DNA from: Escherichia coli
Lineage (GTDB): Bacteria > Pseudomonadota > Gammaproteobacteria > Enterobacterales > Enterobacteriaceae
Strand: one strand, 5' to 3'
Length of the DNA stretch: 64,000 bases
Assembly: GCF_044324875.1 (NCBI RefSeq)
Contig: NZ_CP172185.1
In this document: positions 19,045-58,099 of the stretch, one piece after another
Numbering within the stretch: the stretch's first letter is position 1
How the letters are laid out: every line of letters begins with the position of its first letter
Program-made: the position numbers and the translations under genes
Notes under the pieces: model-generated
Told to the model about the DNA's origin: nothing
Database searches by the model: none
What the model saw: only the letters and a program-made list of their open reading frames with translations

Positions 19045-20025
19045 CTAACGTCCTGCTTTTAACAATAACCAGATAAACACCGGCGCACCCAACGTTGCGG
19101 TGACCACGCCAATAGGCAGCTCTGCGGCAGCTAATGCCAGGCGCGCTACAACATCGGCCAGCAGCAATGCGCTCGCCCCTGCCAGCGCGCAGCCGGGAAG
19201 TAATACGCGATGATCGGTCAAACCACATAACCGGAGAATATGTGGGATCACCAGACCAATAAAGCCGATAGCACCCGCCAACGCCACACTGACGCCAACC
19301 ATCCAGCCGGTCGCTGCCACCAGCACATTGCGCCAGAACCACAGGGGTAAACCCAGTTGCCGCGCCGAGATCTCGCCAAGTGCTAACATATTCATCGGCC
19401 TGGACTGACAACAGATCCACAACAACACGGGGATCAATGCCAGCATCAGCCAGCTTTGCCGCCAGTCTACGCCGCCAAAACCGCCCATCATCCAGTACAT
19501 CAGCTGACGTAAATCAACAGAGGTGGAAAAGTAGATAGCCCACGTCATTAGTGCGCTACAGATAATCCCTAATGCAACGCCAGCCAGCAATAACCGACTG
19601 GTCGAAAGATGACGACGGGCGAAACGTAAGAGTATTAAAGTGATGATAAGCGCGCCAGCAATCGCACACAGCCCCAGCGCCCAGTTGGGGAGTTGCCCTT
19701 GCCCAAGCAATACAGCGGCGATAAGCCCCACGCCTGCGCCATTAGAGACGCCAAGTAGTCCAGGTTCTGCCAGAGGATTTTCAAATAACGCCTGCATTAC
19801 AGCGCCGGATATAGCCAACGCCGCACCAACCAGCAATACAGCCAGCGTACGTGGCAGGCGAATCTGCCAGACGAACAGTTCGCCTCGAGGAGAAAACCAG
19901 TCACCTGGCGAGATCCATTGTTCACCGGCGCAAAGGCTTAAGAGAAGCGCCAGCAGCATCAAAACTGACAGGCATAATAACCAGCGAATATTTTGTCGCT
20001 GTTGTTGGCGGGCAAGTGTCAGCAT
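19045..20025 (-). CDS. btuC: vitamin B12 ABC transporter permease
   Basis: 326-aa highly hydrophobic ORF; FecCD-type permease; synteny. Confidence 0.95.
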
Positions 20026-20086
20026 GGTATCCGTTCTGCTGAAGTGTCATGGCGTTGATTTTACGGTGACTCTTCGACAGTGAAAA

Positions 20087-20108
20087 GAAAAAAGGCCGCA
20101 GAGCGGCC
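20087..20108. repeat. attL core, direct repeat gaaaaaaggccgcagagcggcc
   Basis: Identical 22-mer at 57761-57782; seen in sequence. Confidence 0.7.
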
Positions 20109-20200
20109 ATAATTGCAATCAAAAATCAATAATTTAAATACTTATCAATCACTTAAGAACACATTAAAATACAAGCAACCACGCAAAACGACGTGAATGT

Positions 20201-20218
20201 GGTCACTTTGTGGATCAT
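20201..20218. repeat. 18-bp repeat ggtcactttgtggatcat inside prophage left arm (possible integrase arm-type site)
   Basis: 17/18 match to 57705-57722 in same orientation; functional role is inference. Confidence 0.3.
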
Positions 20219-20631
20219 TCGTCCCCTTCTTTCTCTTTGTTCTGTTGAACGCTAATTGCGACACACGTAGCAATCAAATCTTTACATTTCTCCATATCTT
20301 CTGTCTTGCGCAACTTGATGCTTGCCACCGATTGTGGATTATCCGCTGTGGCACAATGCATTGTTATTTCAATGTCGTTTCGATGAAAGAGTCCCATAAT
20401 AGCTTTTGCAACCTCCGTCCCTTTTTCCGCGATATCAAAGATCAAAGCAAGTTTATACAAAATATCACCAGAAAAACACTCAACCCTGCTAAGACCAACA
20501 TCACATAATGAAAAATATTGCTCAACGTCCCCCTGGAGTTCGGGAGCACACACAATATCTATTTTTCCGTACTGGCCTGAATAAAAGTCACTATTAACTG
20601 TTTTTTTCACAACATCCTCCTTCTTCAGCAA
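20215..20631 (-). CDS. hypothetical acidic protein at prophage left end (C-terminal region paralogous to ORF 56096-56311)
   Basis: 138-aa ORF overlapping 3' end of int; FHRNDIEITMHC...IKLRKTEDMEKCKDLI resembles FRRNDIEIELHF...VKLRHARDVQACQCLI. Confidence 0.55.
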   Translation of the reverse strand: MLKKEDVVKKTVNSDFYSGQYGKIDIVCAPELQGDVEQYFSLCDVGLSRVECFSGDILYKLALIFDIAEKGTEVAKAIMGLFHRNDIEITMHCATADNPQSVASIKLRKTEDMEKCKDLIATCVAISVQQNKEKEGDE

Positions 20632-21595
20632 TTGGATTAAACCTCACCGCATCCTGCAAATAATCCGGTGCAAGATGGGCATAAATCATCGTTGTCTGAA
20701 TCTTTGCGTGCCCCAGAATTTTCTGGAGCGTCAGAATATTGCCGCCGTTCATCATGAAATGACTGGCGAAAGTGTGGCGCAGCGCGTGAACGGCCTGCCC
20801 GTCAGGAATGGAAGGGGCAACCGCTTTTATCGAATCGCGCACCAGTGAATAATCCAGCGCCGGAAATACCAGCTTTCCGCCCCGTTTTTTAATTTTGTCA
20901 AACAGGCTTTCAGAAATTGGAACAGTCCGGTTTTTACTGTTTTTGGTTCTGGAAAATGTGATCCGGGAATGCAGAACGCGGCGCTGTTCAAGTGCCACCA
21001 CCTCACCCCATCGCGCCCCGGTAGATAAAAGAATTTCAGTAGCTAGCCGTTCGTCGGGATGCTCTACCAGAACGTCAAGCAGCTGGAGGCACTCCTGCCT
21101 GTTCAGATACCCCATTTCGCGCTCGCTGACCTTCATCCCTTTCAGTCCGCTAACAGGGTTATCATTCTGGAAGTGACCGGATGAGATGAGTGCGGAAAAC
21201 ATCGCGCTAAGCGCACCAACCTCGCGGTTTATGGTACTTGGCTGAATCCCCTCCTCCGCTCTTGCCACGCGTAATTCCGTTAACGTGGTGGCGTTGACGT
21301 TGTTAACACGCGGATCCCCCATCGCTTCACACACGCGCTGTAATTTGAGGCGTGTGTTCCACCCCGATTTCATCAGTTGCCCGTGAAACTTCCACCATAA
21401 TTCGATAAGTTCGGACAACGAACGGCGATCGGTCGGCGCACTGTTCCATGCGTTATTTTGGTGTTGAGCTAAAACCCAGCGTTCGAACTGGATAGCCTCC
21501 GACTTTGTTTTGAACTTTTTACGAATGCGTTTACCTTTGCGCCCATCAGGACGCATATCAACCATGTAGCCACCAGGGATTGATTTTATGCTCAT
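20594..21595 (-). CDS. int: tyrosine-type site-specific integrase (P2 Int-like)
   Basis: Translation MSIKSIPGGYMVDMRPDGRKGKR...; C-terminal ...HALRHTFASHFMMNGGNILTLQKILGH...YAHL catalytic region; start chosen at ATG 21595 inside longer ORF. Confidence 0.9.
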   Translation of the reverse strand: MSIKSIPGGYMVDMRPDGRKGKRIRKKFKTKSEAIQFERWVLAQHQNNAWNSAPTDRRSLSELIELWWKFHGQLMKSGWNTRLKLQRVCEAMGDPRVNNVNATTLTELRVARAEEGIQPSTINREVGALSAMFSALISSGHFQNDNPVSGLKGMKVSEREMGYLNRQECLQLLDVLVEHPDERLATEILLSTGARWGEVVALEQRRVLHSRITFSRTKNSKNRTVPISESLFDKIKKRGGKLVFPALDYSLVRDSIKAVAPSIPDGQAVHALRHTFASHFMMNGGNILTLQKILGHAKIQTTMIYAHLAPDYLQDAVRFNPIAEEGGCCEKNS

Positions 21596-21644
21596 TGGCA
21601 TACCCCCAGCGTCACAAGCCCACCGTGCCCCCAGCGTTCCATAA

Positions 21645-21953
21645 TCAGCCGTGCAGTGTGCCAGTCTTGCGGACTTTTTGAGAAGGTGATGTGCTTTCTG
21701 GCCCATCAGGGGAGAGAGTCGGGCTGATCTGCCCAGCAGCCTCGTTTGTTTTTCCCGTCATGAGCCAATTCATGTACTTAAAAAAACGAGGATGATTAAC
21801 AATCTTGACGAGAGCTTCGCCGCCGACATTCTCAATCCGACCTGTCTCATAACGGCGTAGAGTACCGATAGGTACATCAATCAGTTCACAAAACTCTTCA
21901 CGCGTTAACCCTTCCGACTCACGAATTACTCTGATTTTTTCACCAATAAACAT
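21645..21953 (-). CDS. immunity repressor (P2 C-like HTH protein)
   Basis: 102-aa HTH protein upstream of int and divergent from early operon; recalled resemblance to P2 C. Confidence 0.7.
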   Translation of the reverse strand: MFIGEKIRVIRESEGLTREEFCELIDVPIGTLRRYETGRIENVGGEALVKIVNHPRFFKYMNWLMTGKTNEAAGQISPTLSPDGPESTSPSQKVRKTGTLHG

Positions 21954-22050: not shown

Positions 22051-22329
22051 ATGACAAAAGTCTTGAACACATACGGGGAGACGGACTTCAACAAGCTGGC
22101 GGCAATGTACCCCTACCGTGATGAGCATGGACTGCCAGTTCTTGAGGAAAGCCTTGAGGACTACGCCAAACGAACCAATCAAGCCCTGAACACTGTTAAA
22201 AAACAGGTCGACAGAGCGCAGATCCCTATAAATCAGCATAAAAAAGGCGGGAAACGCACAGTAAATCTCTACGCAATTTTTCTGAAAACCATCATAAACG
22301 CAGAGAAATATGTACTCATGACGAAATAA
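22051..22329 (+). CDS. first early gene, Cox/Apl-position small protein (function uncertain)
   Basis: 92-aa ORF from ATG 22051 divergent from repressor; positional analogy only, no recognised similarity to P2 Cox. Confidence 0.4.
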   Translation: MTKVLNTYGETDFNKLAAMYPYRDEHGLPVLEESLEDYAKRTNQALNTVKKQVDRAQIPINQHKKGGKRTVNLYAIFLKTIINAEKYVLMTK

Positions 22330-25131: not shown

Positions 25132-25454
25132 GCAATCACCATGTACACACAAAAAAACCGCTTGCAACAACAAACCGGAACAGGGTACGCTTCCCCCGCA
25201 CCTCATAAAGCGGGTGCCGGGTTTCGCAGCCTGCTGACTAGCAAAGCGCACAACCGCGCCAGCGGTTTTTTTGTGCGTACTGTATTGCCACGTCTTTTTC
25301 GCATCAGAATTATGGTGGGGCGTACGGGGCCGACTTCGGTCGGGCCGGTTTCTTCGTTTGCCGGTGTTGAGAACCCCGTACGTCTCGCCACCCCGAGATT
25401 CTCAACTCTGGTTGGTGAGTATCCAAAAACTCACAAACGAAGAGGCCAAACACC

Positions 25455-55965: not shown

Positions 55966-56097
55966 GGTTGAGAGGACATCATAAGGCAAGTAGATTAACG
56001 GCAGATACTTTCCCGCAACCACGGGCAAGTATTTAATTATCCATGATGAAATATGACCTAAATTGTTTTTTGCCCGCCGGAAAGCGGGCATTTTTTT
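55966..56097 (+). repeat. repeat unit 1 (GGTTGAG...GTAGATTAAC...hairpin+T-run), candidate small RNA
   Basis: Shares 5' GGTTGAG, GTAGATTAAC core, TTATCCATGAT and terminal gcccgccNNNNNNgggc+T7 with units 2/3. Confidence 0.3.
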
Positions 56098-56311
56098 ATT
56101 CTTTTGTGGTTATGGGGTCATCAGGAACCACGTGCAGATTATATTTTTGTTTTTTTGGCGTTCCTCCGGCAGCAACGAGTTCATCAATAAGACACTGACA
56201 CGCCTGAACATCCCGGGCATGTCTTAGTTTCACCTTTATTGATTTAACCTTATCCTCACCGGAGGAGAAATGCAGTTCAATCTCAATATCGTTTCTTCGG
56301 AACAATCTCAT
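56096..56311 (-). CDS. hypothetical small protein, paralogous to C-terminal half of ORF 20215-20631
   Basis: 71-aa ORF with RBS AGGGGGG; similarity noted by eye. Confidence 0.5.
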   Translation of the reverse strand: MRLFRRNDIEIELHFSSGEDKVKSIKVKLRHARDVQACQCLIDELVAAGGTPKKQKYNLHVVPDDPITTKE

Positions 56312-56580
56312 ACGCCCCCCTGAATATATCAGAAATGCTAGTATCGAAAAATGAGAAAACAGTTAGACAGGAGAAACATATTAACACAAATCATTTATAC
56401 CTATAGATGAAATTATAATTTCATTCATGAATATGATAGATAACTATATTGTGAACAAAATGAAAAATGGCTAAATTAAAAATGGGCATGGAGGAATGCC
56501 TCGTAATCAGTAATACATGATCCATACTTCCTTGTTTTGCCCGCCGGAAAGCGGGCATTTTTTTGGCGGTTACCATCGCC

Positions 56581-56765
56581 TCACCTTCCTGGTTCACACA
56601 AAGCAACCCTGATTTTCCATGAAAACTTCAGGGTTGAGCCAAAAGCACAAAGACAGTAGATTAACCAAGGGTACCCGCCACCTGCCAACAGGAACGGTAT
56701 CCAGTACGTATTAATGACTGACAATTCACATTGCTGTTTTGCCCGCCAGAAGGTGGGCATTTTTT
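56581..56765 (+). repeat. repeat unit 2 (~203-bp period) ending in intrinsic terminator, candidate small RNA
   Basis: Near-identical to unit 3 with scattered substitutions; terminator stem 56740-56757 + T-run. Confidence 0.35.
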
Positions 56766-56783
56766 TGGCAGTTATCATGGACG

Positions 56784-56968
56784 CACCTTCATGACACATA
56801 TTAAGCAGACCTGATTTTTCCATGAAAAATTCATGGTTGAGACAAAAGCACAAAAACAGTAGATTAACCACGGGTGCCTGCCACCTGACAACAGGAAGGG
56901 GTGTCCATTATCCATGATATACAAACGAAAAGTCTTGTCTTTTGCCCGCCGTTGCGCGGGCTTTTTTT
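56784..56968 (+). repeat. repeat unit 3 ending in intrinsic terminator, candidate small RNA
   Basis: As unit 2; terminator stem 56943-56960 + T8 overlaps hicB stop. Confidence 0.35.
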
Positions 56969-57366
56969 TATCCAAGAACCCTGTCTGCAGCAACACGCGC
57001 CAGAAATCCAGAGCGGCTACCGTATTCAGGATGAGACTCAACGAACTGATCAATGCGACGAATAAGCAGAGATGGCAGGGTAACATTGATTTTTTCCGAT
57101 TTCCCCATCAGGCGGGACACATCCACCTCAACGAGCGCCCACACTGCATCACTGTATTCAGGATCTGATTGCCATTCATCAAGATTTGTAGCGACAGGGA
57201 TAGACTCACCAGATTCAACCAGTAATTCTACGTGTGCCTCAATGGCTTCACGGGCACTGTCTACCGCATCCTGAAAACTATCACCGCCAGAAAAACAGCC
57301 GGGCAGATCTGGGACGCGAACACCAAAAGATGAATCCCCCCGGTCAATAGCGATTGCATATAACAT
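56968..57366 (-). CDS. hicB: HicB-family antitoxin
   Basis: MLYAIAIDRGDSSFGVRVPDLPGCFSGGDSFQDAVDSAREAIEAH... typical HicB N-domain; C-terminal RHH-like tail. Confidence 0.8.
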   Translation of the reverse strand: MLYAIAIDRGDSSFGVRVPDLPGCFSGGDSFQDAVDSAREAIEAHVELLVESGESIPVATNLDEWQSDPEYSDAVWALVEVDVSRLMGKSEKINVTLPSLLIRRIDQFVESHPEYGSRSGFLARVAADRVLG

Positions 57367-57388
57367 TGAGACCTCCAGAAGGTGGGGC

Positions 57389-57568
57389 TTACAGCCCCGC
57401 CTGTTTCTTAATACTTTTTAAAGTTGGTAAAGGTATATCTTTTTGAGGGTGTTTTACCGTTACCAGCCCCTTCTTTGTCGGATGTTTGAATTGATGATGA
57501 CTCCCCTTAACCCTAACAAGATACCATCCATCCGCCTCTATCATTGCTATTGCACTTTTGCTATCCAT
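57389..57568 (-). CDS. hicA: HicA-family toxin (59 aa; absent from ORF track)
   Basis: Manual translation of minus strand: MDSKSAIAMIEADGWYLVRVKGSHHQFKHPTKKGLVTVKHPQKDIPLPTLKSIKKQAGL; 20 bp upstream of hicB. Confidence 0.75.
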   Translation of the reverse strand: MDSKSAIAMIEADGWYLVRVKGSHHQFKHPTKKGLVTVKHPQKDIPLPTLKSIKKQAGL

Positions 57569-57704
57569 CCCCCCGTACTCCGTCTTTCGTTGTTGGAGTT
57601 ATTATAACCCCAACAACTAGTCAAAGCAAGGGTTCGGAGTTATTAGAGTTATAGAATAATTGACTGCCTCCCCAAAACTGCGGCAAGAAAAAACCACTGA
57701 CCAC

Positions 57705-57722
57705 GGTCAATTTGTGGATCAT
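57705..57722. repeat. 18-bp repeat ggtcaatttgtggatcat inside prophage right arm
   Basis: 17/18 match to 20201-20218. Confidence 0.3.
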
Positions 57723-57760
57723 GAATTAATTTTTATTTATAAATCAATGCATTATACAAA

Positions 57761-57782
57761 GAAAAAAGGCCGCAGAGCGGCC
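57761..57782. repeat. attR core gaaaaaaggccgcagagcggcc (part of ihfA terminator hairpin)
   Basis: Identical to 20087-20108; followed by T-run, i.e. intact terminator after ihfA. Confidence 0.7.
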
Positions 57783-57799
57783 TTTTTAGTTAGATCAGA

Positions 57800-58099
57800 T
57801 TACTCGTCTTTGGGCGAAGCGTTTTCGACCCGGCTTTTTAACTTCTGCCCGGGTCTGAAGGTCACCACGCGCCGTGCTGTAATGGGAATATCCTCGCCCG
57901 TTTTCGGGTTACGTCCCGGGCGTTGATTCTTATCACGCAGATCGAAGTTACCAAAACCAGAGAGTTTCACCTGTTCGCCGTTTTCCAGAGCGCGACGGAT
58001 CTCTTCGAAAAACAGTTCAACCAGTTCTTTGGCATCCCGCTTGCTAAGCCCAAGCTTATCAAACAGATATTCTGACATTTCAGCTTTTGTAAGCGCCAT
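57800..58099 (-). CDS. ihfA: integration host factor alpha subunit
   Basis: 99-aa [57 protein letters not shown]... Confidence 0.95.

Follow-up and report, generated by a model that had tools for sequence, protein, structure and literature searches.

The integrase of phage lambda is heterobivalent: its N-terminal domain binds arm sites that are distinct from the core, and IHF bends the DNA between them. In P2-type phages, the arm motif tgTGGaCa forms direct repeats, two or more to either side of the core, and the arm sites of the 186 type are direct repeats with the consensus tgccGCCActt; the N-terminal integrase residues Y, D and R have been proposed to discriminate P2-type from 186-type arm sites, the discriminators of the 186 type being W, E and Y (PMC3448106). 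The P2 record (AF063097) lists the protein-binding sites in the order Int P arm, IHF, attP core, Cox and Int P' arm, with gaTGTGGTCAATGTGTGGACGT as the P arm and TGTGGACACTGTGTGGACAC as the P' arm; the IHF feature is flanked by the P site and the core, and Cox is placed solely in the interval from the core to the P' site. Here we report a pair of short direct repeats at the two ends of a P2-like prophage of Escherichia coli, which, judging from sequence comparison, are very probably arm-type sites bound by the P2-type integrase that the prophage itself encodes.

The 64-kb stretch of E. coli chromosome that was analysed (the window) carries btuE, btuC (19045-20025, minus strand), a 37.6-kb insertion, ihfA (57800-58099, minus strand) and pheT. 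The insertion is a P2-like prophage that lies between btuC and ihfA, within the terminator of ihfA, and has P2-like genes for late control protein D (gpD) and Ogr at its right end and a gene for a C-like HTH repressor next after the integrase gene. A sequence of 25 bp (AAAGAAAAAAGGCCGCAGAGCGGCC), identical at 20084-20108 (attL) and 57758-57782 (attR), bounds the prophage as its att core. The attL copy carries the left half of a duplicated ihfA terminator hairpin, and the attR copy forms, together with 57783-57787, the intact ihfA terminator hairpin (inverted repeat I2). The prophage boundary was fixed at 20108 because E. coli genomes whose site is unoccupied agree with the window as far as this exact position. 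In P2 terms, the left junction is the int-proximal P' arm and the right junction the ogr-proximal P arm. A fragment of hicA was the sole match when the reconstituted attP was compared with the phage collection, and therefore no sequenced phage in this collection has this attP. The target of the prophage is the terminator of a gene that codes for a subunit of IHF, the very protein that its own arms appear to need.

The sequence-only reading had placed two 18-bp repeats of the same orientation at 20201-20218 and 57705-57722, approximately 90 bp and 40 bp inside the att cores. Both were found there on the plus strand: the left 18-mer (GGTCACTTTGTGGATCAT, 20201-20218) and the right 18-mer (GGTCAATTTGTGGATCAT, 57705-57722) are identical at 17 of 18 positions, the former starting 92 nt past the core and the latter ending 35 nt short of it. 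A search of both strands of the window with up to three mismatches returned the two known copies and no others, and none of 100 dinucleotide-preserving shuffles contained two matches (mean number of matches, 0.09). Comparison of the flanks of the left and right copies revealed no homology past the 18 bp.

The att region overlaps the Rfam model of the enterobacterial sRNA STnc540, which covers the 3' end of ihfA, its terminator and the region upstream of btuC. The model matches at attR (57703-57858, minus strand) with 43 bits, above threshold, and its other half matches at attL (20026-20147, minus strand) with 29 bits; the locus is therefore divided by the prophage, and its terminator duplicated. 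As an explanation of the right 18-mer the model was rejected, since almost no letters are aligned there.

The repeats are parts of a longer structure. On the left, the conserved unit begins 3 nt upstream of the 18-mer, at the TGTGG at 20198, and it probably ends with ...GGATC at 20216, as position 20217 is T and not A in the closest relative and in a second cargo class. Each 18-mer is best read as the 3' part, and most, of a 20-bp tandem pair of putative half-sites and not as a single site. The candidate Int site of the P' arm (int-proximal, attL) is TGTGGTCAC-TT-TGTGGATCA at 20198-20217 (plus strand; units TGTGGTCA and TGTGGATC), which includes the left 18-mer, and that of the P arm (ogr/hicAB-proximal, attR) is CACGGTCAA-TT-TGTGGATCA at 57702-57721 (plus strand; units CACGGTCA, which is weak, and TGTGGATC), which includes the right 18-mer. 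The units are about 9 bp long and start 11 bp, or one helical turn, apart (20198 and 20209 in P', 57702 and 57713 in P); all lie on the plus strand, with int on the minus strand, and their orientation is equal in both arms. The gap between site and core is 36 nt for P and 89 nt for P'. In the whole window, the pattern TGTGG-N6-TGTGG occurs once, and this occurrence is the P' site.

Either side of the core thus has at least two direct repeats resembling tgTGGaCa; of these, the first P-arm unit matches in part only, and the second unit, TGTGGATCA, deviates at the invariant C. When dimers were scored with a weight matrix derived solely from the eight units of P2 and WPhi, the P' site ranked 2nd and the P site 138th among the 127,962 window positions scored. 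The first unit of the P arm (CACGGTCAA) is degenerate (weight-matrix score -2.0), and because it fits the motif poorly, the P arm may hold only one good unit. A third TGTGGA motif, TTGTGGATTATCCG (TGTGGATTA) at 20333, was dismissed as a chance match, being located within a cargo open reading frame and not conserved at the equivalent place in strain SK1144.

This arrangement closely resembles that of P2, where both arms likewise carry a pair of TGTGG units that are offset by 11 bp and oriented alike with respect to int, the gaps are 39 nt (P to core) and 87 nt (core to P'), and an IHF site, here a consensus match, is located between P site and core. The first units found here are almost the same as that of the P2 P arm (TGTGGTCAA), and the second unit is TGTGGACA/G in P2 versus TGTGGATCA here. 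The two elements differ in core and integration site (here the ihfA terminator) and in the degenerate first unit of the P arm. Whereas the P2 P' site overlaps the 3' end of int, the P' site here is separated from int by the cargo open reading frame; also unlike in P2, ogr is followed by a repeat region and a hicAB cassette before the P site is reached, and additional IHF consensus matches are present in the P' spacer. Phage WPhi (AJ245959), in which the equivalents of the arm sites are TGTGGACGCTATGTGGACA and TGTGGACACTATGTGGACAC, shares the tandem TGTGGAC units with 11-bp phasing and the same orientation on both arms; its P' site is located just ahead of the int stop codon, its core is different, and its four units are all of the TGTGGAC(A/G) type. 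With the attP of lambda (P1, P2, P'1-3), the principle is common; the number of sites (five), their arrangement and their consensus differ, and the integrase is only distantly related, which places the element outside the lambda site family. The 186-type motif tgccGCCActt is absent from both arms, and the integrase has Y/D/R at the discriminating residues, so that sites of the 186 type were rejected.

The integrase gene (20594-21595, minus strand) encodes an intact P2-type tyrosine integrase of 333 amino acids, as identified by homology, Pfam and alignment; the mechanically called open reading frame (20594-21706, minus strand; 370 amino acids) is longer, and the homologues begin at MSIKSIP (21595). 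The protein contains the Pfam domains Int_N and Phage_integrase, and a match to Arm-DNA-bind_4 remains below the threshold (E 0.0056). It is 46% identical overall to the integrases of P2 and WPhi, and its N-terminal 55 residues are 55% identical to those of P2 Int. The full-length alignment shows conserved R, H-x-x-R and Y motifs and an N-terminal Y-x-x-D-x-R, the discriminator place reading G-Y-M-V-D-M-R. Compared with the common lineage, the N-terminal domain has diverged, at 73% identity.

The repeats had been expected to recur in related att sites, and they do. Left arms were gathered from viral contigs by the core and the following non-T base, that is, by a procedure that does not use the motif, and E. 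coli loci were added; TGTGGTCA[C/A]TTTGTGGATC is present at equal offset in 28 of 28 distinct related left arms. Identity to the window in these arms is 0.99 for the 20-bp site, 0.71 for the 89-nt spacer and 0.44 beyond the site, making the P' site the best-conserved 20-nt stretch of the left arm. The left arm of the window is the most divergent of the compared set. A related P' arm is found in 305 of 5,426 complete E. coli genomes. The P2-like prophages between btuC and ihfA in strains SK1144, AR_0128, O111 11128 and F374 have the core, the P' site and homologous arms in common with the window. The closest relative, F374 (Int 98% identical, right arm identical), carries other cargo straight after TGTGGATC, and most of the relatives at this locus have TGTGGACACACAGTGGAACG as the P-arm site and hok/gef cargo instead of hicAB.

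In the window, the P' site is followed by a cargo open reading frame of 138 amino acids without a Pfam family (20215-20631, minus strand), which separates the site from int. The start of this reading frame overlaps the last 38 nt of int (20594-20631), and its stop codon is the TCA within the P' site (20215-20217), as it is for the family of this reading frame. This reading frame is replaced in the relatives, with the breakpoint just past the P' site. At least five unrelated cargo classes adjoin the site, homology stopping within 1-2 nt of ...GGATC(A/T); cargo modules that start within 1-2 nt past TGTGGATC were found in the window (20216-20220) and in L002, L004, L016, L084 and L095. Since homology ends directly past it, the P' site is the outer edge of the conserved att region.

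At the right junction, the relatives have TGTGGAC(A/G)C-N2-NGTGGAAC, followed by a conserved ATAAATCAAT block and the core. The P arm of the window aligns with that of the relatives (TGTGGACACACAGTGGAACG) without gaps and is identical at 37 of 75 positions, the common blocks being CCACTGA, GG-CA, GTGGA-C and the IHF block. The P-arm version of the window is present in 4 of 5,426 genomes, all at least 99.7% identical, and is assigned as an arm site by its position and its similarity to the P' site. In these alignments, a putative TGTGG-type tandem is kept at a fixed place while its sequence varies by arm and by lineage, a pattern that fits binding by a protein but not a crossover, for which the copies would have to be identical. 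The possibility that the repeats serve a second, nested element as crossover sites was rejected because the two arms of the relatives differ in sequence.

The site extends beyond this group of prophages. A 17-mer of the site recurs in three further settings: in another family, at a distance of approximately 94 nt from a core that differs (AAAAAAGGGAGGCTTTCGCCGCC); at the btuC-ihfA locus of another host, where the spacer is divergent; and directly adjoining the int stop codon in a third family. The integrases of the family with the different core are 62-65% identical to that of the window in the N-terminal domain and 34-39% identical in the core-binding domain, which would be expected of proteins whose N-terminal domain recognises the shared arm site and whose middle domain recognises the differing cores. 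In the third family, the N-terminal domain is 47% identical and has W, not Y, at the discriminator; the rule linking residue to motif is therefore not strict. Homology is lost at the outer edge of the site also in the family with the different core and in the btuC-ihfA relative of the other host.

The consensus WATCAANNNNTTR was used to search the window for IHF sites, and all matches are consensus-level. Five matches were found versus 1.19 expected, four of them in the att arms. One candidate (AATCAATGCATTA, 57742-57754, plus strand) lies between the P site and the core, the same position as the IHF site of P2; two more are located in the P' spacer (20124-20136 and 20143-20155, plus strand), in blocks conserved across the related left arms, and the fourth lies at 20272, just within the cargo open reading frame. 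The matches at 57742, 20124 and 20143 are kept in the relatives, the block at 57742 being the ATAAATCAAT block mentioned above. By its position and by analogy with P2, the P' spacer (20109-20197, plus strand) is presumed to be the region of the excision factor, which is Cox in P2. A search of this spacer for the cox-box TTAAA(G/C)NC(A/C) (PMC3936717) returned three motifs only, each with two mismatches (20134, 20153 and 20164), and the Cox-like protein of the prophage has marginal similarity to P2 Cox.

That the repeats bind another phage protein, either the Cox-like directionality factor encoded at 22051-22329 or the C-type repressor, is very unlikely. The Cox footprint of P2 (24399-24472) does reach the P' Int site and slightly overlaps it, and the sites of directionality factors, too, are direct repeats about one helical turn apart (PMC7498355). 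However, the motif occurs here on both arms, whereas Cox of P2 is annotated on one side of the core, and the repeats are unlike the cox-box. Moreover, no copy of the repeat with up to three mismatches is present in the repressor/early-promoter region, where both proteins must also bind, and this switch region and the P' spacer have no k-mer of 8 nt or longer in common.

The sharp breakpoints raise a second alternative, in which the conserved block is the junction of cargo exchange (a recombination scar or swap target) and its likeness to an Int site is secondary. The start of at least five cargo classes within 1-2 nt past ...TGTGGATC and the end of homology at the same point in another core family agree with such a junction, but selection against exchanges that damage a required Int site yields an equal pattern. 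The P-arm copy of the relatives is not at a comparable cargo junction, and the site of P2, WPhi and the L054 family abuts or overlaps int directly, without any cargo. As motif, phasing, position and the two-arm plan also match the annotated Int sites of P2, we consider this explanation highly improbable. A related proposal, that the outer edge of P' is an active hotspot of cargo exchange beyond the limit set by selection and that the P-arm site of this prophage has been remodelled towards its own P' site (17 of 18 positions), we regard as unlikely; the hotspot could be caused by arm-bound Int, or the folded complex, promoting illegitimate joining there, and the remodelling by co-evolution with the diverged N-terminal domain of Int.

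A chance similarity or a recent, functionless local copy is scarcely tenable despite the small number (two) and short common stretch (18 bp) of the copies, chance being effectively refuted by the shuffled windows and by the 99% conservation of the block in diverged relatives whose flanks diverge, local copying being at odds with the end of homology at the 18-mer, which argues against segmental duplication, and the unconserved TGTGGATTA at 20333 showing how a chance match looks.

The assignment of the repeats to the arms of a lambda/P2-type integrase, as proposed from the sequence alone, is supported by the P2-like nature of the prophage, the P2-type motif, and the position, orientation and conservation of the sites. 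From these comparisons, we infer that Int and IHF would bind at the candidate sites and that the sites would be required for recombination. In the circular phage, the order would be ogr...hicBA, P site, IHF site, 25-bp core, 89-bp spacer with IHF-like and presumed excision-factor sites, P' site, cargo open reading frame and int. As is known for integrases of this class, the small N-terminal domain of Int would bind the arm units, and these Int molecules would hold the core with their other two domains, the core-binding and the catalytic one; IHF would bend the DNA between arm and core, giving a folded complex (intasome), and strand exchange would take place within the 25-bp identity with the ihfA terminator. 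Integration would split the arm sites between the two junctions, where they would be needed again for excision.

The ends of the prophage have several further features. The hicA/hicB toxin-antitoxin cassette (56968-57652) adjoins the P arm, and upstream of hicAB there is an operator-like palindrome (GTTGTTGGAGTTAT/ATAACCCCAACAAC, 57589-57617) with a repeat at 57639-57652. Similar palindromes lie beside hicAB in unrelated phage contigs, and a check of HicB relatives in viral contigs for diverged P arms yielded hicAB in unrelated contexts and no arm sites. Between ogr and hicB, two to three direct repeat units of approximately 203 bp occupy 56530-56971, and a terminator-like hairpin (GCCCGCCGGAAAGCGGGCATTTTTTT) occurs four times (56063, 56530, 56732 and 56935). 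The stretch from 56063 to 56971 is unannotated in E. coli F374 and could be a small-RNA array; a search of it against Rfam found no family at threshold, the best scores (about 20-24 bits) being driven by the terminators. An open reading frame of 71 amino acids near ogr (56096-56311, minus strand) corresponds to the C-terminal half of the 138-aa cargo protein, of which it is a truncated paralogue (38% identity, E 6e-11); like that protein, it has no Pfam family. Related cargo is therefore present at both ends of the prophage. Inside the prophage, isrK (25198-25272, plus strand) and C4 antisense RNA (25308-25395, plus strand) score above the Rfam thresholds, a pair better known from P1/P7-type immunity and Gifsy-type prophages.

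The architecture is that of the well-described P2-type attP and leaves the knowledge of site-specific recombination unchanged. This study delimits the attP of a prophage family, with its core, the proposed Int sites of the two arms and candidate IHF sites, which is of use for the annotation of prophage boundaries, the prediction of the ability to excise, and the design of integration vectors aimed at the ihfA terminator. It also provides a clean example of a prophage in which the functional edge of attP marks the point where cargo genes are swapped.
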